Origin: a virus
Taxonomy: Duplodnaviria; Caudoviricetes
DNA: 32,594 nucleotides
Virus record (IMG/VR): IMGVR_UViG_3300030450_002564
Span: 1 to 32,594 of that record
Reading direction: 5' to 3' (one strand)
Below are positions 3,021-30,130 of this stretch, piece by piece. The position numbers and the translations under genes are program-made. The notes under the pieces were generated by a model, which worked only from the letters and a program-made list of their open reading frames with translations, was not told the DNA's origin and did no database searches. The number at the start of each line of letters is the position of its first letter. Positions within the stretch are counted from its first letter, which is position 1.

Positions 3021-3317
3021 TTAAAAAGCTCCTTTCTTCATAAGCTCCTTTTGTTCAGCAGTTCTAATAACTGCGTAACAAGTTTTTATTTTGTAGATAG
3101 TCCAATTTTCCTCTGTAACTTCTTTATATTGTTTTATACAAAAGTCATTACCGTCCATATCTGTTGCCCATTCTTTAGGTTTATCATTTTTTAAACTACA
3201 GAAATGCTTTCTTCTTGGTTTACTTTTTTCAGTAAAATCATGGTCAGGATAGCGTTTCTGTAGTTTGTTAATAAGTTTATCTAATCCGTGTGATATAAGT
3301 TCTAAATCATTTGCCAT
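3021..3317 (-). CDS. hypothetical protein
   Basis: 98-aa ORF with TAATG overlap and AAGG RBS. Confidence 0.75.
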   Translation of the reverse strand: MANDLELISHGLDKLINKLQKRYPDHDFTEKSKPRRKHFCSLKNDKPKEWATDMDGNDFCIKQYKEVTEENWTIYKIKTCYAVIRTAEQKELMKKGAF

Positions 3318-4243
3318 TAGCTAACCTTATCATTCCAATTAGTAATAATTTCACTAGCTTGTGTCCCTGTTAGGTTTCCATCTCCATAGATTGCTTTAAG
3401 TTCTTTAACACTATCTGCGTCAAGTTTATCTTGTGCTTTTCTCATAATGTCATTAACCCATTTCATTTGACCTTCACTAGCAGGATTTTCTCCTCCATAA
3501 TTACTCATTTCTCCACCTCCTTCTTCAATCTCTTCTGTTTCAAATACTTCATTTACATTATTAATATTACCTGTTGTTCCTTGATACATCTGCTCAAATT
3601 CATCAAGAAATTGAGTCATCATATCAGCAGACCATTTCTCTACATCTTCCATGAAGTCATCTTCAGCAACAAGTCTTGAGTAAACAGTTGCTTGTATTTC
3701 CTTGCGTTGCTTTTCATCACTACAAATTTCTTGCATAACATGATTCATTTGCTCTGCATTTTTCTTACTGTTTCCTGTTGGTGTCTTTGGCTCTGACACC
3801 ATTTCATTAGCTATTTTTTCCATATTTGCTTTCTCTTCTTCAGTAGGTTTATTCTCTTTCTTTCGCATATCAACTTTTTCTACTTTGACTTTGTCGTCTT
3901 TAAATTTCTGAGTCTTAGCCATTTCCTGCATAGAAGGTCTTTTCTTACCACTACCTTGATAGTTCCAATTAGCTAAAGCTCTACCGATAGCAGAAGTTTC
4001 GCAGTTTTCAACCCATGAAGTGTTATTTACATAAGCATTACCTTGTCCTTTAGTTTCTTCTGCTATGCCAGTTGATACAGGATTAACATCATTAATATCT
4101 TTATAAACTAAAGCTCTGATAACAATCACTTTTGCATCTTCTGAAGTGTATGTTGGCTCTGTTAATATTCTTCCGTTTGGATTATCTTTCCAAAACTTAA
4201 TTAACCTATCCTCTACATTTTCGTACTCGTCTTGCCATGCCAT
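3317..4243 (-). CDS. single-strand annealing protein / recombinase (Rad52/Sak-like)
   Basis: N-terminal domain with Y-x2-V-x-DR-x3-F, TG-x-AEE and ENCETSAIGRALA, typical of phage Rad52-like SSAPs. Acidic linker and C-terminal PASEGQ...LT-x3-AS-x2-I helical motif. AAAGGAGG RBS. Confidence 0.7.
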   Translation of the reverse strand: MAWQDEYENVEDRLIKFWKDNPNGRILTEPTYTSEDAKVIVIRALVYKDINDVNPVSTGIAEETKGQGNAYVNNTSWVENCETSAIGRALANWNYQGSGKKRPSMQEMAKTQKFKDDKVKVEKVDMRKKENKPTEEEKANMEKIANEMVSEPKTPTGNSKKNAEQMNHVMQEICSDEKQRKEIQATVYSRLVAEDDFMEDVEKWSADMMTQFLDEFEQMYQGTTGNINNVNEVFETEEIEEGGGEMSNYGGENPASEGQMKWVNDIMRKAQDKLDADSVKELKAIYGDGNLTGTQASEIITNWNDKVS

Positions 4244-6054: not shown

Positions 6055-6172
6055 TCTTCCTCTTTTCTTTTTTTAATCCTATCCATACAGCTACATCAGT
6101 AGTTTGATGTAACAACCAACCTATAACAAAAGTAGTCAATGCTATGCTTAGTGTTTGTAATTCAGGGCTCAT
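6047..6172 (-). CDS. 41-aa single-TM membrane peptide
   Basis: MSPELQTLSIALTTFVIGWLLH...KKEKRKNE; TAATG overlap with the SGNH gene and AAAGG RBS. Confidence 0.55.
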   Translation of the reverse strand: MSPELQTLSIALTTFVIGWLLHQTTDVAVWIGLKKEKRKNE

Positions 6173-7017
6173 TAGATACCTTTCAGTTCTTTAAAGGCGT
6201 TGTTGTACCATAACCAACTAAAGATTTGCTTACCTATTCGTTTAGCACCTTTATCATTTGGCTCAATATCGTTGTAGTAGCAAGTTTCGTCCATTACATT
6301 TCTTGTATCAACTACTTCTACATAATCTAAATCACTTGCTAAACGATATAATCTATCGTTCCACATTGATATTACAGTTTCAACTATATCTTCAATTCCT
6401 TGAAATTGGCTGTTGTCGTATGCTGGGTTTCCGTCATAAACAGTTAACAGCATAAACTTTCTGCCTTTTTTCTTTAGTTTTCCAATAACTGTTTTGTAAG
6501 CACTCAAATATTTGTCTAATTCTCTATTTAATAGTGCTAACATTTCGTTAGTGTCAACTTGTTTTGATAATAAAGGTAAAGCACCTAATAAATCGTTTCC
6601 ACCTGCTGAGATAACAACATACTCCGAGTTGTCGTTTACATCTTTGCAACTATCAAGCACGTTATATATTGTGTATCCATCAACAGTTTGGTCGTTTACT
6701 AGCTCTTCCTTATCCTTTTTACTAATTCCTTGTATTTGGATATTATCTAACATAAAGTCAATAGTTGTCTTATTTGACTTTGTGTAAGCATCACAGTCTA
6801 AAATACTATCTCCTAAAAAAGTTATTTTTGCTTTTTCGTTTATAGTTCTAATAGAATTGAAGTGTCCAAAACTATTCATTAGTTTTATATCCTCATTATC
6901 AAATTTATTATAGTTAATTTCGTTACTTGGTCGTAAATTTTGAACTATTCCGTTTTCGTCTAGTTCGTATTCACTTCCACTCCACTCATCAACAAATAAT
7001 TCATTATTATCTGACAA
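6172..7017 (-). CDS. SGNH/GDSL-family hydrolase (esterase/acyltransferase-like)
   Basis: Block I FLGDS, block II DG, block III SAGGND, block V NDIEPN. Start moved to TTG 7017 (AGAGGA RBS just upstream) because the longer 7116 frame runs through the hairpin array. Confidence 0.8.
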   Translation of the reverse strand: MSDNNELFVDEWSGSEYELDENGIVQNLRPSNEINYNKFDNEDIKLMNSFGHFNSIRTINEKAKITFLGDSILDCDAYTKSNKTTIDFMLDNIQIQGISKKDKEELVNDQTVDGYTIYNVLDSCKDVNDNSEYVVISAGGNDLLGALPLLSKQVDTNEMLALLNRELDKYLSAYKTVIGKLKKKGRKFMLLTVYDGNPAYDNSQFQGIEDIVETVISMWNDRLYRLASDLDYVEVVDTRNVMDETCYYNDIEPNDKGAKRIGKQIFSWLWYNNAFKELKGI

Positions 7018-7051
7018 TTTTTCCTCTTTTCTTTTACTTAACCTGCTATCA

Positions 7052-7474
7052 ATAGATAGCTTGTAACACACAGACACAGTTTTCTCTGCTTGTTTCAAGG
7101 AAGTTTCAACCTGCACTAATCTAGTTGTTTAATCTATAGTTAGTGTACTGTTAGTTTCCTATGTGCTACAAGCTACCTACTGCAACTTTAACGTGTTGCA
7201 TAAAACCCACGTGAATTAGGTTTATAGATAGCTTGTAACACACAACTTGGTTAACAGCAAATTTTAGTTAACATTCCAGTGCACCTCGCTACAAGTATGT
7301 GCTACAAGCTACCTACAGAACTTGGATACTACCAACACACCTATACGTATTGGGCAAGGTTCAGTAAGTTCAAATTTCCCCTCGCTTATCCCTTATAGAT
7401 AGCTTGTAACATACTAGGGTGCAGTCTGCTTTATTATAATTACTTTGTAACCTAATATGCTACAAGCTACCTAC
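7052..7474 (-). repeat. array of three inverted-repeat cassettes with a conserved 20-bp stem and variable inserts; candidate structured ncRNA array
   Basis: ATAGATAGCTTGTAACA(C/T)AC at 7052-7071, 7224-7243, 7395-7414 and AT(G/A)TGCTACAAGCTACCTAC at 7161-7180, 7297-7316, 7455-7474. All four mismatches per stem are G-U on the minus strand; copy 3 has a compensatory change. Confidence 0.9.
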
Positions 7475-7560
7475 CGCTTTCAGTCGTAAGACCAACAGGG
7501 CTGTGTTTACTTACTCTTACTCACGATAGATAACTTTTTTATCTGTCTTTCATATTATTA

Positions 7561-7569
7561 AATATAACA
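7561..7569 (-). promoter_or_regulatory. possible extended -10 promoter (TGtTATATT) upstream of the hairpin array
   Basis: TGn + TATATT on the minus strand about 90 nt before the first cassette. The region is AT-rich, so a chance match is possible. Confidence 0.35.
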
Positions 7570-7577
7570 TCTTGTCG

Positions 7578-7775
7578 TTATATGTTTACAACTTCTTGAG
7601 ATTTTTCATATCCACAAGCAGACATAAACTTTTCTTCATCAAAATTGCTATTAAATTCCTTGAAAGTTTTTCCAAGTTCTAATGCCATATAAAATATAAA
7701 GTCTTTATCTGCATTCGGCTTTGTCTTCATATCTTTAATAACATTTGCAATAGCTTTGAAATGTTTTCTATGCAC
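7578..7775 (-). CDS. hypothetical early protein
   Basis: RKHFKAIA...NSNFDEEKFMSACG, a pattern seen in small phage early proteins; AAAGGA RBS. Confidence 0.7.
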   Translation of the reverse strand: MHRKHFKAIANVIKDMKTKPNADKDFIFYMALELGKTFKEFNSNFDEEKFMSACGYEKSQEVVNI

Positions 7776-8055: not shown

Positions 8056-8085
8056 ATTATAGGCACATCTTAAATTATATGTCAA
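8056..8085 (-). promoter_or_regulatory. strong sigma70/SigA-type early promoter
   Basis: Perfect TTGACA (8085-8080), 18-nt spacer, TATAAT (8061-8056), pointing into the leftward operon. Confidence 0.8.
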
Positions 8086-8585: not shown

Positions 8586-8611
8586 TGTAATTCTCTCATT
8601 GTTACATTACT

Positions 8612-8658
8612 AGAAAGCCCTGCTTAGTTGTTCCTTTGACGCTGAGTGGGGTTTTCTT
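8612..8658 (+). terminator. possible intrinsic terminator
   Basis: AGAAAGCCCTGCTTAG...CTGAGTGGGGTTTTCT imperfect stem ending in a U-rich run, after the last rightward early gene. Confidence 0.55.
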
Positions 8659-8753
8659 ATGCCTATTTTATATGGATTTCAACTGCATCTCTTGTTCTGG
8701 ACTATAAGTTTAACTGATTATCCCCTGTTCTCAATCAAACTAGGTACATTTCT

Positions 8754-8949
8754 ATACCATATCTAGTGCAATCACACACACATACTATATATTGTGTGGT
8801 ATATGCTAGGTATTCTTTTGGTGGCTAGGCAGTTATTGTGCCATCTTTCACATGGCAGGGTTCAATGTGGCGGGGTCTCCTTTATGTAGTAGAACCTCTA
8901 GGAATATGCTGTTAACAGGTACTAGATATAGTGGTACTATATGTTGTAG
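8754..8949. promoter_or_regulatory. four NrdR-box-like 16-mers
   Basis: ATACCATATCTAGTGC (8754-8769), ATACTATATATTGTGT (8782-8797), GTACTAGATATAGTGG (8919-8934), GTACTATATGTTGTAG (8934-8949), compared with the NrdR consensus acaCwAtATaTwGtgt. Confidence 0.55.
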
Positions 8950-9193
8950 GTACCTCTTATATGGCTTTTTTATGTTTGCTTTTCATTTAAGCAAGTAAAG
9001 ATAATGAGTACTTCTTACCCTGTGTCATCCCTCCCAAACCGATAACAAATCTATTTATGACTTATTTTATATTATGAAGTAATAGGCTTTAACCCTAGTT
9101 ATGATGGTCTAGCTAGTCCACTTTATTGATGTTCTTATCAGATATTCTCTTCCTAAGAGCTAGAAAAATATCCTATTTGTACGATTTAATAAC

Positions 9194-9222
9194 TTGTATC
9201 TTAACAGAACATATATTAAAAT
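9194..9222 (+). promoter_or_regulatory. sigma70-type promoter
   Basis: TTGTAT-N17-TAAAAT directly upstream of a run of hairpins. Confidence 0.55.
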
Positions 9223-9228
9223 CAAACT

Positions 9229-9390
9229 AACTAAACTTTTAGGATTCCTTTCCTTTGTTTAGCCTCCTTTCAGTACGATAATCCATCCTCTCGCAAGAGA
9301 GGGTGACTCTAAAATTGGAGGTGACCAAGTTTATTTTGCTAGGCAACTAACAAAATATAACGCAGGTTAAAACCCTGCCACCTCCCTTTA
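9229..9390 (+). ncRNA. candidate structured non-coding RNA(s)
   Basis: Stems CTAAAC/GTTTAG and CATCCTCTC-GCAA-GAGAGGGTG, then a three-way junction GGAGGTG/CACCTCC enclosing TATTTTG..TAG-GCAA-CTA..CAAAATA and GCAGG/CCTGC. No ORF; promoter upstream. Confidence 0.55.
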
Positions 9391-9430
9391 GAGATACCTT
9401 AAGTAATAAGAAAATTTTTTTTACAGCCTA

Positions 9431-9439
9431 TGTTATAGT
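9431..9439 (+). promoter_or_regulatory. extended -10 promoter, probably giving a leaderless transcript
   Basis: TGtTATAGT with ATG 7 nt downstream and no SD sequence. Confidence 0.5.
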
Positions 9440-9445
9440 ATTTAT

Positions 9446-9511
9446 ATGCCTTATACAAAAACAGGAAAAAAGAAAAGCTACTCTTCTAAAAGAAAACCTA
9501 AGAGAAAGTAA
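9446..9511 (+). CDS. 21-aa highly basic peptide
   Basis: MPYTKTGKKKSYSSKRKPKRK; starts at the predicted TSS and ends 4 nt before the terminase ATG. Confidence 0.5.
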   Translation: MPYTKTGKKKSYSSKRKPKRK

Positions 9512-9515
9512 CTTA

Positions 9516-13416: not shown

Positions 13417-13789
13417 CAGAGGTAGAAAAAATACTGCATTAAATGAAGCTACTGATATGACAGGTGGTGGAGCTTTTGCAGACATTGTTGCACCTCCAAG
13501 AAAAGAAGGCGACCCAACAGGACAATCAAAAGCATTAGATGCACAAGCAGGAGCTATAAGTCCAACTGCAGGTCAAATGTCTCCAGGTGTACCAACACCA
13601 GGAATACCTTCTCCGATAAATATTGGAGCAGGAACACAATATCCTAATGAACCTATAACTACAGGGGTTCCTATAGGAATGGGAGATAGTGGTCCACAAC
13701 CTGTGCCAACAAAAACTGTAGAAAATTTTATATTAGAAGCAAAGGTTGCATTTCCAGACCCAATATGGGATGAATTACTTGGAGCGTAA
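13400..13789 (+). CDS. Pro/Gly-rich hypothetical (probable virion) protein
   Basis: 129 aa, AGGA RBS, low complexity, follows the portal gene. Confidence 0.7.
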   Translation: MANKYNRGRKNTALNEATDMTGGGAFADIVAPPRKEGDPTGQSKALDAQAGAISPTAGQMSPGVPTPGIPSPINIGAGTQYPNEPITTGVPIGMGDSGPQPVPTKTVENFILEAKVAFPDPIWDELLGA

Positions 13790-16700
13790 TGGATTACAGA
13801 TTAAAATTCTATTCTCCTTCGTTGGTTAGAGAGTTCATAGCAGAAGAAAATACCGCTAATTTAAATGAAAGATTACAGTTTAGAAGAAATATAAGTCCAG
13901 ATTTAGCAGAAAGTATTGCAAGTATATCAAGGACATATCCTAATTTAGATAAAAGAGCTGTTGTTTATAGTGGTTTAATGGGCTTACAAGATGATGATAA
14001 TACATTATTAGAGTTATCACAAAAACAACAAAAAGCTATGGAGAAAAGTCAAAGAAGTATAAGACCAACATCTACATCTTTTTGGAAAAGAGGAACACAA
14101 TTAGGTTTCTTAGCACTAGATGCACCATTTCAAAACATATCTCAAAATTTTAAATCTACTGTATATGCAGCACAACAAACACAAACACCAGTTGGAAAAG
14201 CTGTTTTTGGAACTTTAGCAGGTTCAATATTGCCAGGAGAAGCAATGAGTGATGCTGTTAGAGAATCTATGTTTAGCAAAGAATTTTCTGATACATGGAA
14301 ACAAACAAAAGAATCTTATGGACCTACTGAATTTAGAAGAGCTAGAGATGCAATGAAAGCAGGAGAACCTTTAAATTTAGGAACAGGTTTTGTTCCACAA
14401 TCAGTAACATTAGAAGATACAGATGAATATAACAGACAAATTAAACTTGGTGAATCACCAACAACTGCATATAAATCAGCAGAAAATAAATACGGAACAC
14501 CTATTACAGAAGAATTTAAAAAAGATGAATATAGATATAACTATGTAACACCTCAAGGAGAACACGTTCCTATATCTCCAGGTCGTGTTGTTGCAGGTCA
14601 ATTTAGCAAAGAAGGAGATTTAAAATATGCAGTTACAAGTACTATTATTGATGGAGCTTTTAGACTAGGAGCAGACCCAATTAACTTACTTTTAGGTTAT
14701 GGTTCTGGTGTAAAAACTGCAGGACAAAAAATAGTTTCTAAAGCTGCAGTAGATGATTTTCTAATAAAAAATCCTAAAACTATTGGTAGAGCATTAAAAA
14801 GTATGTCGCTTGGTAAAAAAGGAAAAGATGCTAGAAAATTTATGTTTGGTAAAACTGCAGAAGATGTACTTAAATCTAAATGGGGTGATGATTTCTTAGA
14901 TGCTTTAGTAGAGAACGATAGTATAGCAAGATTAAGAGACATACCTTCTTTTAGAAAAGTAGATACTAGAGTTTTAGAATTGTTAGCTAGTGTAAAAAAC
15001 AAAAATGCTATGAGAGAAATTGTAGAAAGCATGTTAACAAAAGGAGATTTATCAAAATTAGCATCAGCACCATACACAAGTCAATTTGTTGGGAAAGAAT
15101 TATTAGAAGCACTTCCTGTATCTAAAGTAAATAAATTACCTATGAGAAAAAGTGTTACAGGAGAGTTAGCAGGAGGTTTAGCTAAAAAATTTAAAAGTCT
15201 AGGACCAACAGATATTGCACCAATAAGAAGAGGTGTGGTTCCTACAACATTAACACTTGGAGAAGAATTAATTAAAGGTATTGGAAAAATACCTGGAAGT
15301 CCTTTTAAAAAATTAGCAGGAGGTTTAATTGAAAAAGGAGACGACCCTTTTAGAGGAATTGTTGGAACTGGAGGACAATTAAAATTTGCACTTCCAAGAG
15401 GAATTACAAGACTTTTTGATTTAGCACCAAGTAAATTTGCATCTTTAAGATATGTACAGGAAACTGTAGAAAACATTGATGGGCTTTTAACTACAATGGG
15501 AGAAAATGCTGAAACAAGAGATTATTTTATAGCTAAAATACTTACAACAAAAACTGCAGATGATTTAATAGAAGTAGTATCAGAACTTAATGAAAAAATA
15601 TTTGATTTTGTTAAAAGAGAAAATCCAGATTACGGTAGATATTTAGACTCTCCAGAGGGTGCTGATGATGCTAAAAAAATATTAGAAGCACATAAACGTT
15701 TATCTTCGACAATACAAGAAAATAAAAAATATTTCTATGATGAAGATGGCTATCCTATTATTTTTCCAGGAACAAAATTTAAATATCCTAGTTTAGAAAC
15801 TACTCCTATAGCTGAAGCTGCAGGAAGAGAGACACCTAGGTTTCAACAAATTGCAGAACCTACAGCATTAGTAATGAGTCAATTTGCAGATAACTTTGTA
15901 GCATTAATGGATTACACACAACTTGCTACAGCAGGAAATAAATATAGAAAATTAGTTCCTAAAGAAGCTAAAGGATTAAATAAAGCACTATATGGTTGGA
16001 ACTCTGAAAAAGAATCTATAACTAAAAAAATAGTAGATACAGGAAAATTTCCTAAAACTGCATTTAAAGATAGTAATTATAGAGGGTCAACTCCTGAATT
16101 AGCATCTGCTACTTTAGCTGAATATGTATATAGTGACGTATTTATGCAAAAAGTTTTAAAACCTGGATGGATGTTAAGACTTGCTTTAGCTGTTCGTGTA
16201 CCAGGTGAAGAAGCAGTTCGTACTGCTGTATATGGTGGTCCATCTGTATTTACACATCCTTTAGAGTTATTATCTTTAAAATTTAATAATCCTTTTTCAA
16301 AAAAACAAACAATACAACTTATGGGAAGTATGGGAGAAGATTTTTTTGCAACAACAATTAGAGGAGATGAGATAAGTAAAATTGCTGAAATGACAGGAAC
16401 TCCTGCAATGCAAGATTCAGTAAAAAATTTAACGTATGATGAAATAGAAAGAGTACTTAAATTTAAAAGATTAAATGTTAATCCGTCAGGAACTATTGGA
16501 GATTCGTATTTAGCTTCTTATATTAAAGATGTTGATACCACAATAGATTTTCAATTAAAAGAAATTAAAGGTGGATTAAAAAAATTAAAGAAACAAAAAG
16601 TAACTCCAGAAGATATAGAAGAATCTGCAAGGTTTTTAGGTTATGAAATAAATAGATTAAAAGATGTAGTTCAAGTACGTGCATTTAATAACGTGAGTAG

Positions 16701-19700
16701 AGTTTCTACAGGACAATTAGACTTTCAAGCAGGTAATGGTATAGCTGTAGGAATAAATAAAAATCTTGAAAAAAGTTTTGAATTTTCAACAGAAAAAGAA
16801 TTACAAGAAATATTACAAGGATATATGCAGGAACCAGATGTATTAAAAGCATTACAAAAAGAAAGTCACGGATTAATAACAGATGTAACAGGTAACAAAA
16901 TAAATTTAAATGTTGGAATATCTAAAAAAGAATTAGTAAGAGGAACAAAAGAAGAATTAATAGATGCTTTAGCTTTGGCTATTAAAGGACAGCAAGAGTA
17001 TGTATATTTAACTCGTTCAATAATAGATACAATAGATTTAGATAATGGATTATGGGATGTAATTGAAAGTTCAGGAGACGTGTATAAATTAAAAGTTCAT
17101 AAGTTACTTGATGATGAAGATTCTATAACTTTTAATACTCAAGTAGCAAGAGAAGTAATGGAATATATGTTTGAAGAAAATTTTAAGACAGCAAAATTAA
17201 TAACTTCTAAAAAAGGTGGATTTGCACAAGCTGCACCAGATGGTTCATTTTTTAATGTTGACCCTTATTATTTAGAATCACAGGCAGAAAATACTTTAAT
17301 GCAAACATTTAGAACAGGTAAAAGAAGTTCAGATGAAGAGATATACCACATGGCAGACAAATTAAGAAACGGAGAAATTACAGAAGAATTTTGGACAGGT
17401 TTTATAGGTGAAATGATGAATTATTCAAAAGACCCTGCATTTATTATAGTTGCAAGAGATGGTGTAGAAGAAGCTGTTAAATACTTTACAGAAACTAGAC
17501 ATGGTAAAAAATATATACAAGATTTTATAAATTGGAGTGATGACCCAGGAACTCGTGAAATGTTGTTAGATGAAGACAACTTAAGACTTTGGTTAGGTAA
17601 TATTGAATGGGAAATAGGAAGATTGCAAGGTAATCCAACAAGAAAAGCAGTTAGTCAATTTACTGGTAATGAAATAAGATTAGAAAGTCAATTAAGAGAA
17701 TTGATGACTAATGCTGAAGGTATTACTAAATATCCAGTATTTAGTGCAGACTTAACACAAGGTTCCCAATCTGTTAGAGAGTTTATAGCAAATGGTGGAG
17801 TAATTGATGGGGAAGATTTTAATGAATTAATTCAAAAATTTAGTATCAATAGAAGAGGTAAACCTGAACAAGCTCAAGCATTTAGAAATAAATTTAAAAA
17901 GTCTTTTAAGGAAGATTTATACGACTTTGATATGGGACCAAAAAGAATAGCTTATAATACAAATACTAATATAACTCCTGATGGAAGATTAAAAGATGGA
18001 GCATATTCAAAATATGATGAGTTTTTATCTTTAGGATATAGTGTATTATTACAAAAACCTTCAGATTGGTTAAATAGAGACCCATTTTTTAGATGGTCAT
18101 TTTATACATTATCACAAGATATTATTCCTTTTATGACAAAAGAAGTTAGAGATGAATTTTTAGTAGGTGCTAAACCTTGGATAGAAGGTAGTAGTTTGTG
18201 GGATGATGTAGTTAAAGCAGCAAACGTTGGTGAAGGTGAAAATTCTATAACAAGTCTTGAACAAGCTATGGAGATATTGAAATACCAAGCTATGGACGAA
18301 GTCAAGAACTTACTTTATTCAAGTAGTGATAGACATGTACTTTCTGACATTATGGCTACTTATGTTCCATTTCCTGAAATATGGCAAGAGGTAGCAAAAA
18401 CATGGGGTAAATTAGTATTAGAAAATCCTGCTAAATTTAACAGAACACGTATAGCTATGGATGCAGGAAAAGAAGCTAAGCCTTGGGATACTCATAATGC
18501 TTTTTTTGAAACAGACCCTGTTACAGGAGAATTAATGTTTAATTATATAGATGTTATGAATGTTATGACGTTTGGTATGACAGCAATACCTGGTGCTTTA
18601 GGATTTAGACCTTTTCAAAGTGGAATGTTAGGAGAAGATTTAACAGAAGAAGGTGTAAGAGTAAAGCCACATGGTTTCTTAGAGGGATTAAACTTAGTAT
18701 CTGCTAATGGATTTTCACCAGGATTTGGACCTGTTGTTACTATGCCACAAAAATTCTTTACAAGATATAGAACATTCCCTAAATGGTTGAATGATTTTGT
18801 TTTAGGAAACTTTAATTCTCCAGGAGGACAAGCAGACCCTAGAGATGAATTGCCTGGATGGATGAAAAAGTTCTTTAAAACAACACCATTTGGTTCATTA
18901 AAATCAGACGAGATGGATGCTTCTTATGCTAAAACTGTAATGGATATATATACTTTATATTATTATGCAGGGAAATGGGACCCTGAAGATGAACAATCTA
19001 TGAAAGATGCTTTAATAGAAGCAGAACAAGCTGCAGCAACACATTGGAGAATAAGAGGTGCAGCTCAATTTGCGTACCCTACAGCAATACAACCAAGATA
19101 TGAATTACAAGATAAAAATGGAACTTGGTGGGCATTAACTGTTTTATCTGCACAATATCAAAAAATGTTAGAAGCAAATGATTTTGATTATTTTGTTACT
19201 ACACAACAATTTGTAAATAGATATGGATTAAATCCAATACCGTTTAGACAAGCAACAGTTAAGAAAGAAGGTAGATTTCCTGTTAAAAAATCAGCTTATG
19301 CTTTCTGGTCTTTAAAAGAAAATAAAGAACTTATGGAGAGAAATCCATCTACAGCTATTTATATACACATGGATACATGGGATGATGAATTTTCTTATGC
19401 TGCGTTTTTAGATGGTGCAGACCAATTAGAACCAGAACAATATCAAAAAGCTATGAATCAAACATTAGCTCAATTTGAATATCAAGAACAAAAAGAAATT
19501 CTTGAACGTGATAAAACTATCAAAAATGAAAGTGCTTTACAAAATGCAATTACTGATAAAAGAATTGAAATAGAAGGAAGATATGGTGTTAAACTATTTG
19601 GAAATATTGGTATATCTGTTACGCAACCAGAATTTACACAATTAGTTCTTGATTTTAGAAAATGGGAAAATGAACCTAAATTAAAAGCATCTCCTGAATA

Positions 19701-20010
19701 TACACCTTTAAAGAAATATTTAGATAAAAGAGATGAAGCAATACGTGTTATGTTAAAAGGAGGAACATTTACAGCAGTAATTAATGGTGTAGAACAATCA
19801 TACGAATCAAGAGGTGTGCCTGGAAAAAGGGATGTTATACTTAACGGTAAGCATGAAGACACTAAGCAGTTGAGAATATTGCTTGATTCTTATGCTAGAG
19901 ATTTAGCTAAAGATTATTCAGATACTAATTTTATCGATATATACCTCGGTAACTTTTGGTCTGAATTAGACAATAGAAGATATTATGACGAGGAAGAGTT
20001 AGAAGAATGA
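13789..20010 (+). CDS. very large (2073 aa) putative internal virion / DNA-ejection protein
   Basis: Uninterrupted ORF in the structural module with no tape-measure-like repeats. Function inferred from size and position. Confidence 0.6.
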   Translation: MDYRLKFYSPSLVREFIAEENTANLNERLQFRRNISPDLAESIASISRTYPNLDKRAVVYSGLMGLQDDDNTLLELSQKQQKAMEKSQRSIRPTSTSFWKRGTQLGFLALDAPFQNISQNFKSTVYAAQQTQTPVGKAVFGTLAGSILPGEAMSDAVRESMFSKEFSDTWKQTKESYGPTEFRRARDAMKAGEPLNLGTGFVPQSVTLEDTDEYNRQIKLGESPTTAYKSAENKYGTPITEEFKKDEYRYNYVTPQGEHVPISPGRVVAGQFSKEGDLKYAVTSTIIDGAFRLGADPINLLLGYGSGVKTAGQKIVSKAAVDDFLIKNPKTIGRALKSMSLGKKGKDARKFMFGKTAEDVLKSKWGDDFLDALVENDSIARLRDIPSFRKVDTRVLELLASVKNKNAMREIVESMLTKGDLSKLASAPYTSQFVGKELLEALPVSKVNKLPMRKSVTGELAGGLAKKFKSLGPTDIAPIRRGVVPTTLTLGEELIKGIGKIPGSPFKKLAGGLIEKGDDPFRGIVGTGGQLKFALPRGITRLFDLAPSKFASLRYVQETVENIDGLLTTMGENAETRDYFIAKILTTKTADDLIEVVSELNEKIFDFVKRENPDYGRYLDSPEGADDAKKILEAHKRLSSTIQENKKYFYDEDGYPIIFPGTKFKYPSLETTPIAEAAGRETPRFQQIAEPTALVMSQFADNFVALMDYTQLATAGNKYRKLVPKEAKGLNKALYGWNSEKESITKKIVDTGKFPKTAFKDSNYRGSTPELASATLAEYVYSDVFMQKVLKPGWMLRLALAVRVPGEEAVRTAVYGGPSVFTHPLELLSLKFNNPFSKKQTIQLMGSMGEDFFATTIRGDEISKIAEMTGTPAMQDSVKNLTYDEIERVLKFKRLNVNPSGTIGDSYLASYIKDVDTTIDFQLKEIKGGLKKLKKQKVTPEDIEESARFLGYEINRLKDVVQVRAFNNVSRVSTGQLDFQAGNGIAVGINKNLEKSFEFSTEKELQEILQGYMQEPDVLKALQKESHGLITDVTGNKINLNVGISKKELVRGTKEELIDALALAIKGQQEYVYLTRSIIDTIDLDNGLWDVIESSGDVYKLKVHKLLDDEDSITFNTQVAREVMEYMFEENFKTAKLITSKKGGFAQAAPDGSFFNVDPYYLESQAENTLMQTFRTGKRSSDEEIYHMADKLRNGEITEEFWTGFIGEMMNYSKDPAFIIVARDGVEEAVKYFTETRHGKKYIQDFINWSDDPGTREMLLDEDNLRLWLGNIEWEIGRLQGNPTRKAVSQFTGNEIRLESQLRELMTNAEGITKYPVFSADLTQGSQSVREFIANGGVIDGEDFNELIQKFSINRRGKPEQAQAFRNKFKKSFKEDLYDFDMGPKRIAYNTNTNITPDGRLKDGAYSKYDEFLSLGYSVLLQKPSDWLNRDPFFRWSFYTLSQDIIPFMTKEVRDEFLVGAKPWIEGSSLWDDVVKAANVGEGENSITSLEQAMEILKYQAMDEVKNLLYSSSDRHVLSDIMATYVPFPEIWQEVAKTWGKLVLENPAKFNRTRIAMDAGKEAKPWDTHNAFFETDPVTGELMFNYIDVMNVMTFGMTAIPGALGFRPFQSGMLGEDLTEEGVRVKPHGFLEGLNLVSANGFSPGFGPVVTMPQKFFTRYRTFPKWLNDFVLGNFNSPGGQADPRDELPGWMKKFFKTTPFGSLKSDEMDASYAKTVMDIYTLYYYAGKWDPEDEQSMKDALIEAEQAAATHWRIRGAAQFAYPTAIQPRYELQDKNGTWWALTVLSAQYQKMLEANDFDYFVTTQQFVNRYGLNPIPFRQATVKKEGRFPVKKSAYAFWSLKENKELMERNPSTAIYIHMDTWDDEFSYAAFLDGADQLEPEQYQKAMNQTLAQFEYQEQKEILERDKTIKNESALQNAITDKRIEIEGRYGVKLFGNIGISVTQPEFTQLVLDFRKWENEPKLKASPEYTPLKKYLDKRDEAIRVMLKGGTFTAVINGVEQSYESRGVPGKRDVILNGKHEDTKQLRILLDSYARDLAKDYSDTNFIDIYLGNFWSELDNRRYYDEEELEE

Positions 20011-23154: not shown

Positions 23155-26100
23155 GTGGATAGAAACCAATTTATAGCAGCAATAATGGATGAAGCTAACC
23201 TTTTATTTAGAAATAATGGTGGTATAGATTTAAATGAGATATGGGATAATGTAAGTAGTTCAGACCAACGTTCTCTAATAGAAGATTTATTAACTCGGTT
23301 GGAAAAGGGCGATACTCTTAACGATATTACTGTAGATATATTAAATGATAATTCACAGTTACAACCATTTGAACCAAATGTCCGTAATATTATATGGGAC
23401 CTTAATGAAAAAAGAGAGGGAATGATTGAAAGAGCAGGGACTTTGGATGGAGAGTCTTTGGCTAACATTATGTTGGAAGAACCTGGTACATTAGATGACC
23501 CTGTACCAAGGTCTGTCTCTCGTAGGGTAGCTGAACAGAGAGCAGCAGAATTAGAATCTCCAGAAGCACGACAGAGAGCAGCAGAGTTAGAAGCAGAATC
23601 ATTAAAAAGAAGAGCAAAAACATACGGAAGTAGCAATGTAATCATAGCTGATTTTAATAAAACATATAAACCGTTACTTGAATCATTATTGGAAATAGAT
23701 TATTTTAAAGAATCTCTTGAAAAATATTTATCACTTGAACAATCAAACTATCCAGGATTAACAATAGATGATTTACTGGATAAAGAATATAGAGGTTTAT
23801 TAGTAGGTGTATTAGAAGACATGGGTATTAATACTCAACTGTATATTAATAATAAAAGAAGAATACATCCAAACCCTGAAGTAACAGGTTCAGCTAAATT
23901 TAAACCTCTTTTTGAAGGTCCTAATAATGAAGGATTTATTAGTTTTGATTTATATAAATATATAAATGTTAGTGATGCTAATCACAATCAACCAATAGAA
24001 GTATATGAAAAATTAAAAGAATTTAGTAAATCTCATAAAATTCCTGTAGTAGCTTCAGTAGATAGAAATGTTTCTTCTATGCACAGCTTAAGATTATTAG
24101 GAGAAAGCAGACAAATTGCAGATGGTGTAAACCCAATATTAGAACGAAGTATTGATGCAATTAACTATATAACTGAAAATACAGAAGATATTAGTCATAT
24201 AAAAGAACACGATACTAGGAGTTTTGTAGATGAGACAGTAAAAGATTTTAACGCAAACCCAGAAAAAAATGGAAGACATGCTATAAAATACGGTTCTGCA
24301 CAACAAACTGTTGTATCTTTTGGTGATATTGATTTAGATACATTAGAAACTGCATTATTAGAAGTAATGGACAATCATTTTAAGAATGTTGAAAGTACTT
24401 ATTCATCATCTCCAGTTATAAGGGACCGAAATTTTATGAAAGTAGGAAATAAATCTCTGCCTGTAGGGGGAATAAGTACTTTAGAAAGATATTTAGAAGA
24501 AATGTTTGCAGGTCACATGCACCATCCAGTAGGTTCACACCACAATATATTTGGAGAAGGTGCAGATTTTCATACTGCTATTTTAAATTCTCTTATGGAA
24601 AAGATTATTGAAAATAATAAAGGTACACAATTTATTACTCTTGGAGGGGATACCAACTTGAATTCAAGTATGAGTTTTAAGGCTAGAAGACTAGCAAGTG
24701 CTATTTTTGAAGAACCAACATCACAAGATGCAGTTGCACGAAGAAGTACCAGAAGCGAAGTAGTAAATTTGTTTGACACATTAAACCATGATGGATTACC
24801 AGATAATGAATATTTTGATGAATTAAGAAAAAGATTAGATATTGCAATGGAAAAAGGAATAAAACTTTCTGAAAATAAAAAAGAAATAAATACTTTTTTT
24901 GAAGAACTTATATCACACTTTGAGGATACACTCACAGCAGAAATTATATATATAAAAGGAGAACCAAGAATTATTGGTATTGTAAATAATAATGTTGGAA
25001 AGATTTCTCAAACATCTGAGTTGGTAGCTAGTTTTACTAACTACGATAGTGGTTACACATACGGATATAAACGTCCTATGTATATGTATGATAAATTAAA
25101 TCATAATTATAAAAGTAATTTAATTAAGTTTAGAAAATTAAAAAAGGCAGGATTAGATTTTATATTTGGTGGAGCAATAAAGAGATTATTAATTCCTTGG
25201 GCAGATAAATTGAGATACACTATGAAAAATGGTCCATCTTGGACAAGTGTAGCTTTAGCTTATACTAGGTTTGGATTTCAAAATCAAGATAAAAGCCACT
25301 TATATGAGTTAGGAAATAGACCTGATTATGATTACTTTCAAGTAAGAATACCGTTACCAGAAGAATATACAAATTCTAGGAGTAGGTATCTTAAACCTGT
25401 AAAAGAAATAGAAGAGAGAATTTCTGGTAAACCTAAACCCTTGAGCGACCAATGGAAATTTACATGGGAACCAGGAAGTATGAGAGTTACAGATAGAGAA
25501 ATGATGATTCTTATTGCCGCAATGGAAGGATTTTATGATAAAGATGCAATAGAAAAAACTCTTAATGTAATAAAAGGTGATACTGAAAATCCTATTACAG
25601 ATAGTACGTATGGCTCAGATATAGATTTAAATAGGCAGGTAATGAACAATATAGTTGGACTTTTTGCAGAGACAGAAGATGATATTGATACATTAAGAGA
25701 CGTAATGGATAGTACCACTAACGTTAGTACTGTTGCTATGGAAAGAGCTTTACAAAGTAGAATAGAAATGTTGGAATACAGAGGTGCTAAATTGTATTCA
25801 AAAAATGCAAATGATTTAGTTTCTTTTCTTCTTCGTAATCACCTATTAAAAATTCAAGATTTAGCAATAGCAATTTCACAATCAGGCTTAGTTCACGATA
25901 AGCATACAGTGTTATTAGAAGATGCAGATATTAATTTAACTTTTCTTGAAAATTTAAAAAAAGGTCTTGGAGATAAACATCCATCAGCTATATCAACAAT
26001 TAAAAATATTGAAAAAGATTGGTTTGTAAGACCAGGAGAGACAGTAGATGATATGCTTTTAAACATTACAGATTACATTGTTGAAAATAAAGATAACATA

Positions 26101-28914
26101 AAATTAAATATTAGAAAAGATGGGACAGTATCAGTTGGTGATAATTGGAGGATGTTATCAGATTTGTTAATAGAAGATAATGATTCTCCTGATAGTAAAT
26201 GGGAAAAAGGAAATACCGATAACATTACTATAGGTGAACTTTTAGATATGATGGAAGATGAGAATCCTTTAAAAAACAGCCTCACAGAAGGAATAGGATA
26301 TATTAGCGAAGATGAATCACTTAAATTAAATGACGACCCTGAACGTTTAGAACAATATAGAGCTGATTATGTTTTGAGTGAATCTGAATTTACTGAATTA
26401 AGTGAAGAACAAAGAGAATTAAGAAGAGCAAATAAAGAAGATATAACTGCAACACCAGAACCTGACACACCACGTGCAAGTAACCCAGGACTTCTTTATG
26501 ATGATTTGAATAGAAGAATTTTATCACAAGAAGTTGATGTATGGGATGATGATGCAGAATGGTTAATAGAAAGACAACACGCAGATACAGAAACTATTGC
26601 TTTGTTAGAACCAAATTATAATGATTATTATCCATCTGATAATTGGAGAAATCCAATACAACCTATTTCAAGTGAACTTCCTAATAACGAACTGTGGGCT
26701 ATAGATGTAGAATATACTTATGGTAATTTTATAAACATGTTCCAACAAGGAAGTGAAGTTGGATACCGAGGTTTTCAAGGTATAGGTAAAGATATTTCAG
26801 ATTATTTTAGACATAAATTTATATCTAATTTAAATAGATTAATTGAAACATCAGACAATATATCAGGTGGTGAAAGAATACTTGCTGTTGATATAGATAT
26901 TACTCCTGTAGTTAGTCACGAGTTTCCATTCTCTAATACTGACTTTATAGAAATAGGAATAATAGGTTATGACCCTAAATATAACAAAACATTTCACGAT
27001 TACATAAATGTAAAAGTAGATATTTCTGGACGTGAAGGTGTCGTAATAACTGATACAGCATATACAAGTAATAGAATTAACCCTGCTTTAGCAGATGATA
27101 CTGGACCTATGCACTTAATAAGAGATGGACGTTCTTTATCAAGAGATGCAAATCTAGGAGTTATGGTAGAAAATGCTGTTGGTTCATTAGTTATAAGTAT
27201 GGAAGAAATAGAAAAAGAAAAAATAAAAGATGCTAACTCAGGAGATACACCAAAAGGTGTCAGATTTGAGGGAGGTTTAACTCCTGGTACAGAGCCATCT
27301 CCATCAACTCCTTTTGGTACAGGATTACCATTTAGCACTATTGATGACAGAGTTTTTATGATGGGTAAAGTAGCAAAACGAATGAATTTATTTAAATCAT
27401 CAGCACCTAATCCAGATGTCGTACCACTTATGAGTACAAACATTAACAATGATTTTCCACCAAAGATAATATCAGGTGAGAAAATGGAAATGGTGTTACT
27501 TCATTCAGAATATAGCCGAGATGCTAATGCAGAACAAATAGACGTAAGAGAAAGAATTGAAGAAGCAAGAAGTACTACTCATACAATAGGAACATTTTGG
27601 GAAACAGTTGCTTATGATACAACAACAAATGATGAAGCTTTATTTGAATTAGGTAATCAAAGTTTACAACAGGATAATGTTCAACAACTTATACAAAATT
27701 TAGAAGATTTTGCAGAAACTAACAATGCAATAGTAGAGCTTAATTTAACTGCTACAGCTCATAATTTAAATACAGATAATATTCGTACTATTGAAATAAG
27801 ACCTTCAGGAATTACAAACTCTCAAGCCCAACCTATATATGCTAATGCAGTAGCTGAAGGTAATAATGTATTTGTTGGAAGAATAGATATTACAGCACCT
27901 AGTAATTCTTTTGGAGAAAATTTTGATGCCTCTTTTAAAAGAGCTTTAAATATAAAACTAGCTGATGGTAGTCTTATGGATTTAATAACCATACACGATG
28001 ATGAATTACCTAAATCTGAAGTACAAGCATTAACTAATCAATCTCATCCTCATAATAATATTCACAATCAAATGAGTGGTGGACCTTTTGCAACAGAAAC
28101 TGATAACCCTTTTGCTAATCAATATAACATTAACAGAAACGCTGGTTTAGGAGAAGCTACAGGTGGACCAACAGAAACACAATATAAAAATTCACCTGTG
28201 GAAACAATACCTAGTAAAAAAGTATTAAGACAATTATGGAGGGCTATGGCTGATACACCTGTAGGTAAAACATTAGGTTTAGCTTGGAAGGCAGTAGATA
28301 TAGGAGAAGTTGCTATATCTAAAGCATTTGAAGTATCACAGGCAGCAGCAATTAGAAGAGCATTAGCTCAAGGTGCAAGTAAAGCAGCAGCATTAGCTGC
28401 AGCTAAACCTTGGATGTTTATGTCTCAATTATGGATTGCTTATGAAGTTTCTAACTTAATAGTAGGAATGGCACAACAAGTTCCTGATATTGCAAACATA
28501 ATTAAACACAGAAATGATGTTTTAAAAAATGGTGAACCATGGGAAAAAGCTGCTATTGAAGATAAATTATGGAAAAGTATAGGTAAAGAATTATGGGAAG
28601 GATTAACAGTAGCGGCACAACGTTCTCCTGCAGAAAAATTAGCAGATGTAATATGGCAACCTGCATTTGGTGCCATTGAAAATTACATGAATGGAGATAA
28701 CAGACAACTTGCAAACATACCTCAAACTAAAGTAGAAGATACAGCAGATGATATATATAATAATGTTTCTTATTCTCCAGAAAAGAAAATGGATTTAATG
28801 GCTGATAGAATAGACTACGATACATTGTTCTACGGCTATTTAAATAACGACCCACAAGCTAATGTTGTTGTTGATAGAACATTTGAATTAGCAAATAGTG
28901 TGTACAATAGGTGA
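23155..28914 (+). CDS. very large (1919 aa) putative virion / polyvalent protein
   Basis: Long ORF with GTG start and AAGGAG RBS; Ala-rich hydrophobic segment near the C-terminus. No confident family. Confidence 0.6.
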   Translation: MDRNQFIAAIMDEANLLFRNNGGIDLNEIWDNVSSSDQRSLIEDLLTRLEKGDTLNDITVDILNDNSQLQPFEPNVRNIIWDLNEKREGMIERAGTLDGESLANIMLEEPGTLDDPVPRSVSRRVAEQRAAELESPEARQRAAELEAESLKRRAKTYGSSNVIIADFNKTYKPLLESLLEIDYFKESLEKYLSLEQSNYPGLTIDDLLDKEYRGLLVGVLEDMGINTQLYINNKRRIHPNPEVTGSAKFKPLFEGPNNEGFISFDLYKYINVSDANHNQPIEVYEKLKEFSKSHKIPVVASVDRNVSSMHSLRLLGESRQIADGVNPILERSIDAINYITENTEDISHIKEHDTRSFVDETVKDFNANPEKNGRHAIKYGSAQQTVVSFGDIDLDTLETALLEVMDNHFKNVESTYSSSPVIRDRNFMKVGNKSLPVGGISTLERYLEEMFAGHMHHPVGSHHNIFGEGADFHTAILNSLMEKIIENNKGTQFITLGGDTNLNSSMSFKARRLASAIFEEPTSQDAVARRSTRSEVVNLFDTLNHDGLPDNEYFDELRKRLDIAMEKGIKLSENKKEINTFFEELISHFEDTLTAEIIYIKGEPRIIGIVNNNVGKISQTSELVASFTNYDSGYTYGYKRPMYMYDKLNHNYKSNLIKFRKLKKAGLDFIFGGAIKRLLIPWADKLRYTMKNGPSWTSVALAYTRFGFQNQDKSHLYELGNRPDYDYFQVRIPLPEEYTNSRSRYLKPVKEIEERISGKPKPLSDQWKFTWEPGSMRVTDREMMILIAAMEGFYDKDAIEKTLNVIKGDTENPITDSTYGSDIDLNRQVMNNIVGLFAETEDDIDTLRDVMDSTTNVSTVAMERALQSRIEMLEYRGAKLYSKNANDLVSFLLRNHLLKIQDLAIAISQSGLVHDKHTVLLEDADINLTFLENLKKGLGDKHPSAISTIKNIEKDWFVRPGETVDDMLLNITDYIVENKDNIKLNIRKDGTVSVGDNWRMLSDLLIEDNDSPDSKWEKGNTDNITIGELLDMMEDENPLKNSLTEGIGYISEDESLKLNDDPERLEQYRADYVLSESEFTELSEEQRELRRANKEDITATPEPDTPRASNPGLLYDDLNRRILSQEVDVWDDDAEWLIERQHADTETIALLEPNYNDYYPSDNWRNPIQPISSELPNNELWAIDVEYTYGNFINMFQQGSEVGYRGFQGIGKDISDYFRHKFISNLNRLIETSDNISGGERILAVDIDITPVVSHEFPFSNTDFIEIGIIGYDPKYNKTFHDYINVKVDISGREGVVITDTAYTSNRINPALADDTGPMHLIRDGRSLSRDANLGVMVENAVGSLVISMEEIEKEKIKDANSGDTPKGVRFEGGLTPGTEPSPSTPFGTGLPFSTIDDRVFMMGKVAKRMNLFKSSAPNPDVVPLMSTNINNDFPPKIISGEKMEMVLLHSEYSRDANAEQIDVRERIEEARSTTHTIGTFWETVAYDTTTNDEALFELGNQSLQQDNVQQLIQNLEDFAETNNAIVELNLTATAHNLNTDNIRTIEIRPSGITNSQAQPIYANAVAEGNNVFVGRIDITAPSNSFGENFDASFKRALNIKLADGSLMDLITIHDDELPKSEVQALTNQSHPHNNIHNQMSGGPFATETDNPFANQYNINRNAGLGEATGGPTETQYKNSPVETIPSKKVLRQLWRAMADTPVGKTLGLAWKAVDIGEVAISKAFEVSQAAAIRRALAQGASKAAALAAAKPWMFMSQLWIAYEVSNLIVGMAQQVPDIANIIKHRNDVLKNGEPWEKAAIEDKLWKSIGKELWEGLTVAAQRSPAEKLADVIWQPAFGAIENYMNGDNRQLANIPQTKVEDTADDIYNNVSYSPEKKMDLMADRIDYDTLFYGYLNNDPQANVVVDRTFELANSVYNR
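23535..23592 (+). repeat. in-frame 36-bp-period duplication (QRAAELE x2)
   Basis: ACAGAGAGCAGCAGA(A/G)TTAGAA at 23535 and 23571. Confidence 0.8.
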
Positions 28915-28917
28915 TAT

Positions 28918-30129
28918 ATGTTTAAAGAAGGATTACAGTTAACAAACGCAGACAGGTTAATAGTTGTAGACGGACAATATTATGCTATTTATAACTATGA
29001 AGCAACAAGTGGTAACACATTACCTATTGTAATAGCTGTTGACACAGTAGATGCTTTAACTAACCCTGGAAATGCAGAAGTTATGACTGAAGAACAATTT
29101 CAAGACCAAACAGGTCATATTCTTATGCCTTTATTTAATCTATCTCAATTAAAATTAGAAACAGCAGATGACCCATTCTCTGATTTAGATACAATACTTG
29201 CCAATTTAGATGAAGATTTAGAAAAAAAAGCAAAATACTATGGTTCTCCCTGGTATTTAGATGATGAAGTACAAAAACTGTTTGCTTACGGTGCTATAAC
29301 AGGTGAAAGTATAACTCCTTATTTAAGTGAATTATCTTGGTGGAAGAATACTACTGAACATGAAAGAGATTGGATAAAGTTAGTATATAGAAATCCTGAA
29401 GAAGCAAAAAATATTATTTCAGAAAATTATAAAAATATATTGTTATCTACAAATCAGTTACAAATAACTGGTGAAGGAGTTGATGATTTGTTAAAACAAT
29501 TAGCATCAGATGCTTCTAGTGGAAAGTTTGGCTCACCTACAGAAGCAGGAACAAAATTAAATGAGATAGTTTCTTTATTGTTTGATGGTGTTAAAAGACA
29601 AATGGCAGGTGGTATAGAGGCAATACATGAAGATTATAGAGGATATGTTGGAAGAATTAATGAAACTAAATCAGGAGAAGGAGATGCTTTTACAAAAATA
29701 GAATCATATTTAGGATTAGAAGCAGCACATGCTTACCGTTCCTCTGGAAAATTAGCAGAGTATGCAGGACTATTAAGAGCTGATGCAGAATCAGGAACAA
29801 ATACAAATGCAGAAATGATTAATGATGAATTACAAAAAGCACATGATAAGTTATTTCCAAATTATGAAGGTAGTAAACATTCTTCTTGGTCTGCTTCTAT
29901 ATACAACACAGCATCAACAATATTAGGTAAAACAAGTTTAAGTCGTGCTGATAAAAAAGAAATGGATTTAATATCTCAATCTGTAGGTGGAGATATGTCT
30001 TTGTTTAAAGCAGAAGTAAGAAAGAAGTATGAAGATGACCCAACATATCAAGAAAGAGTGTTAGCAGGTTCTACTATGGCATTTAATCAAGCATTGTCTG
30101 GTGTTTATCAAAGAAGAGGAAGAATGTAA
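28918..30129 (+). CDS. hypothetical (probable virion) protein
   Basis: 403-aa ORF with AGGTG RBS. Confidence 0.7.
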   Translation: MFKEGLQLTNADRLIVVDGQYYAIYNYEATSGNTLPIVIAVDTVDALTNPGNAEVMTEEQFQDQTGHILMPLFNLSQLKLETADDPFSDLDTILANLDEDLEKKAKYYGSPWYLDDEVQKLFAYGAITGESITPYLSELSWWKNTTEHERDWIKLVYRNPEEAKNIISENYKNILLSTNQLQITGEGVDDLLKQLASDASSGKFGSPTEAGTKLNEIVSLLFDGVKRQMAGGIEAIHEDYRGYVGRINETKSGEGDAFTKIESYLGLEAAHAYRSSGKLAEYAGLLRADAESGTNTNAEMINDELQKAHDKLFPNYEGSKHSSWSASIYNTASTILGKTSLSRADKKEMDLISQSVGGDMSLFKAEVRKKYEDDPTYQERVLAGSTMAFNQALSGVYQRRGRM

Positions 30130-30130
30130 A

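Follow-up and report, generated by a model that had tools for sequence, protein, structure and literature searches.

Gene layout and architecture of the array

The window, by which we mean the whole stretch of DNA analysed, is a single virus record of 32,594 nucleotides (32.6 kb) with an estimated completeness of 83%. A terminase gene at 9516 opens a plus-strand block of structural genes, and small ORFs on the minus strand, from 8026 to 2482, form the early side. The best annotated matches of the terminase comprise a handful of unannotated records together with many Streptomyces phages at ~25% identity. A perfect match to a sigma-70-type promoter, located 611 nt before the first arm of the array, likely drives the early operon. 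Directly 3' of the array, a gene for a GDSL/SGNH-like hydrolase begins with a TTG codon ~35 nt past the last arm, preceded by a purine-rich stretch that resembles a ribosome-binding site. This gene is a passenger and no fixed partner of the array, being present at 8 of 69 loci. A constant partner gene of any other kind was also rejected, the commonest neighbour family occurring at 26 of the 69 loci only.

The three arm pairs of the array lie where the preliminary description had placed them (Table 1). On the minus strand, each unit forms 20 contiguous pairs, 16 of them Watson-Crick and the others G-U at positions 1, 5, 15 and 20, and in the copy at 7395-7474 both partners of pair 18 are altered from C-G to U-A, all as claimed; the lengths given for inserts and linkers are likewise correct. 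Three further points needed revision. Among the unit-specific extensions reported for the stems, ACTTG/CAAGT pairs on the minus strand only with a one-base bulge. The inserts and linkers are indeed unrelated to each other within the window, but five of the six pieces have relatives in other phages. Finally, the array starts earlier than noted, with an orphan half-arm, for which no upstream partner was found, and a conserved leader cargo. Folding of 7040-7545 yields -165.8 kcal/mol (z -6.85) for the minus strand, compared with -124.8 kcal/mol (z -3.56) for the plus strand. A BLASTN search with 6900-7600 against annotated phages returned two 37-nt chance matches only. Contigs of two RNA runs (with small shares of 0.09 and 0.05) reach 6062-6521 of the window; the array lies outside their coverage, as does the array of a relative.

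Table 1. Features of the array and its surroundings, and tmRNA-like RNAs of related loci
Feature	Position	Strand	Remarks
Terminator-like site	9362-9378	-	within ORF-poor stretch 8586-9515
Perfect sigma-70-type promoter match, TTGACA-18-TATAAT	8056..8085	-	consensus match only
Orphan outer half of 3' arm	7526..7534	-	pairs with first 5' arm and closes leader cargo, 12-bp helix
Cargo 0 (leader), AGUA..GAA bulged-G-type hairpin with CCCUGUU loop	7479..7521	-	family of 55 distinct copies
Unit 1, arms 7455-7474 and 7395-7414, 40-nt insert	7395..7474	-	predicted cuts 7464/7463, 7404/7403; insert 7415-7454 a singleton
Linker cargo, three-helix pseudoknotted RNA, 78 nt	7317..7394	-	16 homologues
Unit 2, arms 7297-7316 and 7224-7243, 53-nt insert	7224..7316	-	predicted cuts 7306/7305, 7233/7232; insert in cluster of 5
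Linker cargo, two short hairpins, 43 nt	7181..7223	-	homologue between arms in L230/L223
Unit 3, arms 7161-7180 and 7052-7071, 89-nt insert	7052..7180	-	predicted cuts 7170/7169, 7061/7060; insert in cluster of 6
GDSL/SGNH-like hydrolase gene	6172..7017	-	directly 3' of array
tmRNA-like RNAs	L104:64-146, L435:75-155, L498:425-507, L522:153-238	-	
tmRNA-like RNA	L536:793-875	+	
tmRNA-like RNAs, further loci	L026, L040, L150, L191, L197, L240		beside arrays

Distribution of the stem family

The window array belongs to a large phage family present in hundreds of virus and metagenome contigs. Three pattern searches matched the arms in at least 125, in 111 and in 26 IMG/VR stretches, and at least 127 metagenome stretches carry the arm pattern; the design claimed for the window, conserved arms with variable inserts in variable copy number, recurs in these contigs. 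A finder that combines the motif with required pairing at positions 10-18 (positions 14 and 20 being free in sequence) returned 287 units in 1.15 Mb of fetched loci versus none in 0.20 Mb of shuffled loci. These reduce to 134 distinct arm pairs and 67 distinct inner stems. Units were present in 223 of the 238 loci examined, and at none of the 223 did they occur on both strands. We also collected 117 distinct 5' arms without any partner requirement, 107 of them with enough downstream sequence; for 106 of the 107, a paired 3' arm follows within 8-145 nt, giving inserts of 8-145 nt with a median of 54.5. Pooled, the data hold 334 distinct inserts in 150 clusters (Chao1 264), and a ribosome-site-plus-ORF pattern occurs in five of the 334. 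Units stand singly in 100 of 188 clusters and in groups of two, three, four and five in 62, 21, 4 and 1, figures that are lower bounds since loci are cut at their ends. At four loci (L351, L354, L192 and L495), units reach 314-322 nt, and several modules lie within one variant stem.

No single phage protein accompanies the element: of seven longer records compared with the window, five have 11-13 protein clusters in common with it and the other two only 2 and, in G012, 0. Neither the stem nor the window cargo has an Rfam match at gathering score. Below that score there are weak miRNA-type hairpin matches and, in relatives only, partial matches to tmRNA; no CRISPR repeat family matches the array. 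ARAGORN reported nothing in the window or in 52 loci. No prior description of the stem family was found in the literature, mainly open-access, and the arm motif is absent from those tables covered within the supplements of PMC10690425. The exact 5' arm occurs in a single contig of the GTDB collection. This contig (L126), 3 kb long, comes from a MAG titled Acidiferrobacteraceae and is probably a mis-binned phage fragment.

Probable host

The host is probably Actinomarina-like, which fits the Ca. Actinomarinales of PMC7771536; the assignment draws on genes of two relatives and not on the window itself. A whiB gene, present in 1 of 30 records, has its best matches among 401 Acidimicrobiia genomes mostly in genomes of ~1 Mb. 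A close relative encodes a ferredoxin with 72-74% identity to those of two ~1 Mb genomes and 67-68% identity to those of two larger ones. Homologues of the exonuclease, searched as a further clue to the host, gave no match. We used such genomes as proxy hosts; one of them, G091, has a GC content of 34%. According to the accessible text of PMC7771536, Ca. Actinomarinales are without toxin-antitoxin or CRISPR systems, which makes anti-CRISPR or antitoxin mimicry by the array less likely. Two phage loci, L255:7435-7686 and L243:6419-6673, encode 4Fe-4S ferredoxins with 65-74% identity to proxy-host ferredoxins.

The stem as an RNA helix with two distinct halves

As judged by comparison of homologues, the stem is an RNA helix of 21-24 bp on the strand of the neighbouring genes. 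The helix reaches 21-24 contiguous pairs in 231 of 287 units. Pairs 2, 3 and 6-9 hardly vary among the 134 arm pairs and 67 inner stems, and pairs 10-20 are altered on both sides. In these alignments, outer pairs 1-9 are thereby nearly fixed in sequence and inner pairs 10-20 co-vary freely. Covariation among homologues, which the proposal of a functional RNA stem had called for, is clear in 22 units chosen to include variants: 99.8% of alignment cells are paired, 10 of the 20 pairs are altered on both sides, slid partners pair at only 17-46%, and extrahelical bases are absent from pairs 1-20. An unfiltered check gave a similar picture. Of 26 matches found by the outer motif alone, 18 pair at 10-11 of 11 inner positions; the other eight pair at six or fewer and look like chance.

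The wobble pairs indicate the strand. Of the 134 arm pairs, 89 have G-U and 2 have A-C at position 1; at position 5, the corresponding numbers are 88 and 4. The nearest ORF is co-oriented with the units upstream at 57 of 65 loci and downstream at 56 of 63. By their distribution, the G-U pairs mark the strand read by the neighbouring early genes.

Exchange of inserts and linkers at the arms

Comparison of loci further indicates that inserts and linkers belong to conserved families and are exchanged at the arms. The preliminary description had missed two aspects of this, that the linkers are cargo too and that the arms are the exchange points. In L081, the sequences upstream and downstream of the array are 98-99% identical to those of the window (291/295 and 285/290), and one unrelated unit stands in place of the three units of the window; the units of this locus have been replaced, and the site is not empty. 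Of the pairs formed among 283 units, 249 have only the insert in common, 61 have both flanks but not the insert, and 11 have everything; insert and flanks are thus largely uncoupled. A cargo that one phage has within the stem can lie between stems in another phage. Rare outer variants of the arms track the flank (35/172 and 79/178) over the insert (12/173 and 24/223), and inner variants track the insert (94/255 and 117/255) over the flank (37/509 and 11/355), which places surviving crossovers around the invariant pairs 6-9.

This exchange needs no site-specific enzyme. No tyrosine integrase was found in 21 phage records, and no Y1 transposase, IS630-type DDE transposase or reverse transcriptase in the same 21 records and two proxy hosts. 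The lack of a reverse transcriptase gene (0/21 records) also sets the array apart from retron ncRNAs. Integron attC sites and REPINs depend on an integrase or a Y1 (RAYT) transposase, respectively, and contain extrahelical bases; here, neither enzyme was found in the 21 records and the helix is free of such bases.

The arms might nevertheless be DNA-level sites of a MITE/Correia-like or attC-/REPIN-like kind, recognised by a transposase or recombinase, with the RNA fold being incidental. Both arms read RTARRTAGC in inverted orientation, starting with TA, exchange points map to the arms, and G-T pairs can form in single-stranded DNA as well. We consider this quite improbable, given the enzymes not found, the single GTDB contig with the exact 5' arm, the strict one-strand arrangement of units, the uninterrupted pairs 1-20, and the strand specificity of GNRA-capped hairpins in the interiors (24 sense and 7 antisense versus 12.7 shuffled, of 135). 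The closest element of this kind is the Neisseria CREE, in which inverted arms of ~20-26 bp surround a core and which is bound or cleaved by RNase III in mRNA. The accessible text of PMC2649163 describes CREE as having a conserved core, more than 120 copies per genome and target-site insertions. In contrast, the present units have unrelated cores, few copies and a single orientation, and occur in phage early regions only. A conserved core, many host copies and both orientations, the marks of a Correia or MITE element, were not found here.

Structured RNA families among the cargo

Several cargo families combine sequence conservation with structure. Homologues of the 78-nt window linker number 16, and every one begins directly behind a 3' arm. 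In 13 aligned copies it forms three helices, one of them crossing, with 99% of cells paired and three pairs altered on both sides. The commonest linker cargo, to which the window leader belongs, has invariant AGUA and GAA ends stacked on the closing helix, which we take to be the bulged-G motif. A full 9/9 closing helix is present in 49 of 55 such cargos and comes mostly from the outer halves of neighbouring units; a separate scan gave 22 copies that form the stem, 17 of them located at arms or units. A kink-turn reading of the leader was dropped because the RG/CY pairs co-vary, with 53 of 55 pairing. Overall, inserts fold slightly better than shuffles, with a median z of -0.61 versus -0.31 for control fragments. 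Pseudoknots at first appeared enriched (30 versus 19.4 shuffled), a signal we discarded as not strand-specific, with 37 in antisense.

A T-loop-like motif occurs in 10 of 106 insert clusters versus 1.4 shuffled; several of these motifs sit in pseudoknot loops, so that tRNA mimicry is not general. Relatives of the window, though not the window itself, contain six distinct tmRNA-like RNAs of 77-83 nt, four of which lie within 120 nt after a 3' arm-like motif (Table 1). They share the acceptor and T arms of the tRNA-like domain of tmRNA (RF00023), with E values of 2e-13 to 3e-12. In contrast to tmRNA, they score below gathering threshold and include neither a coding domain nor an encoded CCA; at least three unrelated interiors occur among them. 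These RNAs are possible decoys of SmpB or alanyl-tRNA synthetase.

The alternation of constant and variable segments 3' of a strong promoter match, with predicted processing to small RNAs, resembles CRISPR and TIGR arrays, and the preliminary description had entertained a CRISPR-like polycistron. In a guide array of this kind, inserts would pair with targets. The cargo speaks against this. Exact 15-mer matches of 142 cargos to the proxy host number 28, compared with 25 in shuffles, and matches to phage records number 13 versus 7.9 (maximum 13), borderline at most; one 18-nt match falls in a tRNA gene. No target was found for any cargo in the proxy host or the phage records. TIGR-Tas systems have a Nop-domain gene and short spacers of fixed length. 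Here, inserts vary from 8 to 145 nt, no Nop domain is encoded in the 21 records, no Cas family occurs among the 31 window proteins, and the pieces are recurring, co-varying folded families rather than spacers. A guide array is therefore largely excluded. For the CCCUGUU loop of the leader family, the complement occurs in 4 of 920 host start regions versus none in controls, which the ribosome-binding site alone could explain, and 12 times per 157 kb in cargo-carrying phages versus 19 times per 433 kb, no clear excess. In G091, it stands just 5' of start codons at 76529+, 332669+ and 666852-, maybe only as ribosome-binding sites; the genes are presumably eno, smc and clpX.

Predicted processing by host RNase III

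RNase III processing signals are known from the early mRNA of phage SP82. Those of T7 are likewise two-turn helices in an early polycistronic transcript, often just 5' of a ribosome-binding site, and five occur in the T7 early precursor (accessible text of PMC3867540). As described in the accessible part of PMC6212723, a substrate of RNase III from E. coli is a helix of ~22 bp with A-U/U-A at positions D and D', G at J and J', and G-C/C-G between the cuts. Phage RNase III signals and the present stem agree in these D- and J-position preferences. When the register is centred at 10/11, the 67 distinct inner stems have A-U/U-A at D' and D with frequencies of 1.00 and 0.91, and G at J' and J with 0.96 and 0.82, a fit that is not independent at D' and part of J', which belonged to the search motif. 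Of seven registers, this is the only one that satisfies both D and both J positions by E. coli preferences. Against the E. coli rule of PMC6212723, as far as its accessible part states it, the central pairs are mostly U-A, with G-C/C-G in 7% and 16%. The two-fold symmetry score at 10/11 is 0.37, no clear excess over other axes (0.35-0.39).

RNase III is encoded in all five genomes that serve as proxies for the probable host and in none of the 21 phage records. We considered Mini-III, whose ACCU/AUCU site (accessible text of PMC4357697) resembles pairs 3-6, and rejected it: each proxy host has a single PF00636 match, of 227-230 aa, the size of full-length RNase III. The 23S rRNA stalk of the proxy hosts has the same pairs as the phage stem at 2, 6-9 and 12, a likeness spotted post hoc; their 16S stalk is without the motif. 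As in pre-rRNA stalks, the arms of the stem flank an RNA, here a putatively functional one. Here, however, the cargo is short (8-145 nt), highly diverse and phage-borne, and the linkers are predicted to be released as well.

For each of the five products predicted for the window (60, 98, 73, 63 and 109 nt), the predicted fold has a closing stem that leaves two 3' bases unpaired. At 107 junctions, a mean of 8.85 of the 9 outer pairs form across the linker, compared with 8.81 within the unit and 8.69 between arms that never share a product; a shuffle test gave P ≤ 0.0005, which is optimistic since junctions are related. These comparisons suggest that the stems are likely cut mid-helix by host RNase III, releasing inserts and linkers as small RNAs. 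Of the earlier proposal, the part that concerns RNase III-type cutting and release of several small RNAs is thus supported comparatively, by helix, register, junction pairing and cargo families, while its CRISPR-like part is not.

The pairs that flank the predicted cuts, 9 and 12, are C-G/G-C in 100% and 79% of stems. In the accessible text of PMC1540722, such pairs beside the cut lower E. coli cleavage 7-14-fold in vitro and leave binding unaffected; we infer that the position concerned corresponds to stem pairs 9 and 12. This E. coli rule of binding without cutting fits stems that are held uncut by RNase III or another host dsRNA-binding protein, the long early RNA then being a sponge or a scaffold that displays the cargo, and CREE hairpins can be bound and then either cut or protected (accessible part of PMC2649163). 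The preliminary description had named such a decoy function as its alternative, and we keep it as a minority reading of low probability, since the 23S stalk of the proxy host has the same C-G/G-C pairs and since uniform outer halves and closed linker folds are explained most simply if both strands are cut.

Alternatively, the stems may be sites of the T7 type that segment or stabilise early mRNA, with the folds acting in cis, through end protection or translation control, or being passengers spread by recombination. The single-unit clusters lie between genes, and 111 of 176 terminal units stand within 60 nt of a ribosome-binding-like site with a start codon (median 21 nt). We regard this as unlikely, though the most credible of the alternatives. 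Compared with T7 signals, the stems here are near-identical in sequence across unrelated phage groups, are stacked without genes, up to five in a row, and both enclose and separate a conserved, exchangeable non-coding cargo that can stand inside or between stems. Excisable pieces retain compensatory changes, and 150 cargo clusters go far beyond the needs of end protection.

Proposed mechanism

The best explanation, to which we assign a probability of roughly 60%, is that stems on the early strand are cut mid-helix by host RNase III, which frees each insert and linker RNA, and that these RNAs are exchanged at the stems. A helix of 21-24 bp would be transcribed on the strand of the neighbouring genes, with inserts and linkers as conserved families swapping at its arms. 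We hypothesize that the two arms are cut in a staggered manner, the 5' arm after pair 11 and the 3' arm between pairs 10 and 9, which would yield RNAs closed by a stem with a 2-nt 3' overhang. An insert would keep its own inner halves as the closing helix, and a linker would be closed by outer halves from the two units beside it; outer halves must therefore stay uniform, whereas inner halves need to match only within a unit. The freed RNAs may act in trans in host takeover, the weakest step, either by mimicking the partners of the host's RNA-binding machinery or binding to it, or by antisense pairing through short seeds. Short-homology recombination within the common arms, between co-infecting phages, would reshuffle the set.

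The stem would thereby resemble an RNase III processing stalk in its working and serve as an exchangeable cassette for small RNAs; its helix and its exchange are the parts shown by comparison. A broader reading is tentative and, in our view, somewhat less probable than its negation: marine actinophages with unrelated virions would share a protein-free polycistron, processed by host RNase III, of at least ~250 recombining structured RNAs, including mimics of host housekeeping RNAs, that serve as effectors of early takeover.

If the cuts are real, a single host nuclease signal mass-produces many small RNAs that are reshuffled like gene cassettes. The stem would then be a bracket marking the ends of ~150 observed (~260 estimated) RNA folds, undescribed so far and subject to selection, that could be screened for targets or ligands. 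A further gain would be the rules by which RNase III of an uncultured marine lineage recognises its substrates, together with a natural design that yields several closed small RNAs from one transcript. Should the RNAs form an effector library, they would represent the RNA counterpart of the variable early-protein repertoire.

Other features of the window

The minus-strand ORF at 3317-4243 has an N-terminal domain resembling Slr1353_N, a dsRNA-binding-like fold, and its product could serve in annealing or be a partner that binds RNA. The connection of this ORF to Rad52 is weak; Rad52-family genes are present in two relatives. Two very large ORFs, at 13789-20010 (2073 aa) and 23155-28914 (1919 aa), have no Pfam or PHROG match. 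The stretch 8586-9515, 5' of the terminase gene, contains ~930 nt without long ORFs and several palindromes, possibly packaging or replication signals. The ORF at 30101-31618 contains an exact 42-nt tandem duplication at 30156-30239.
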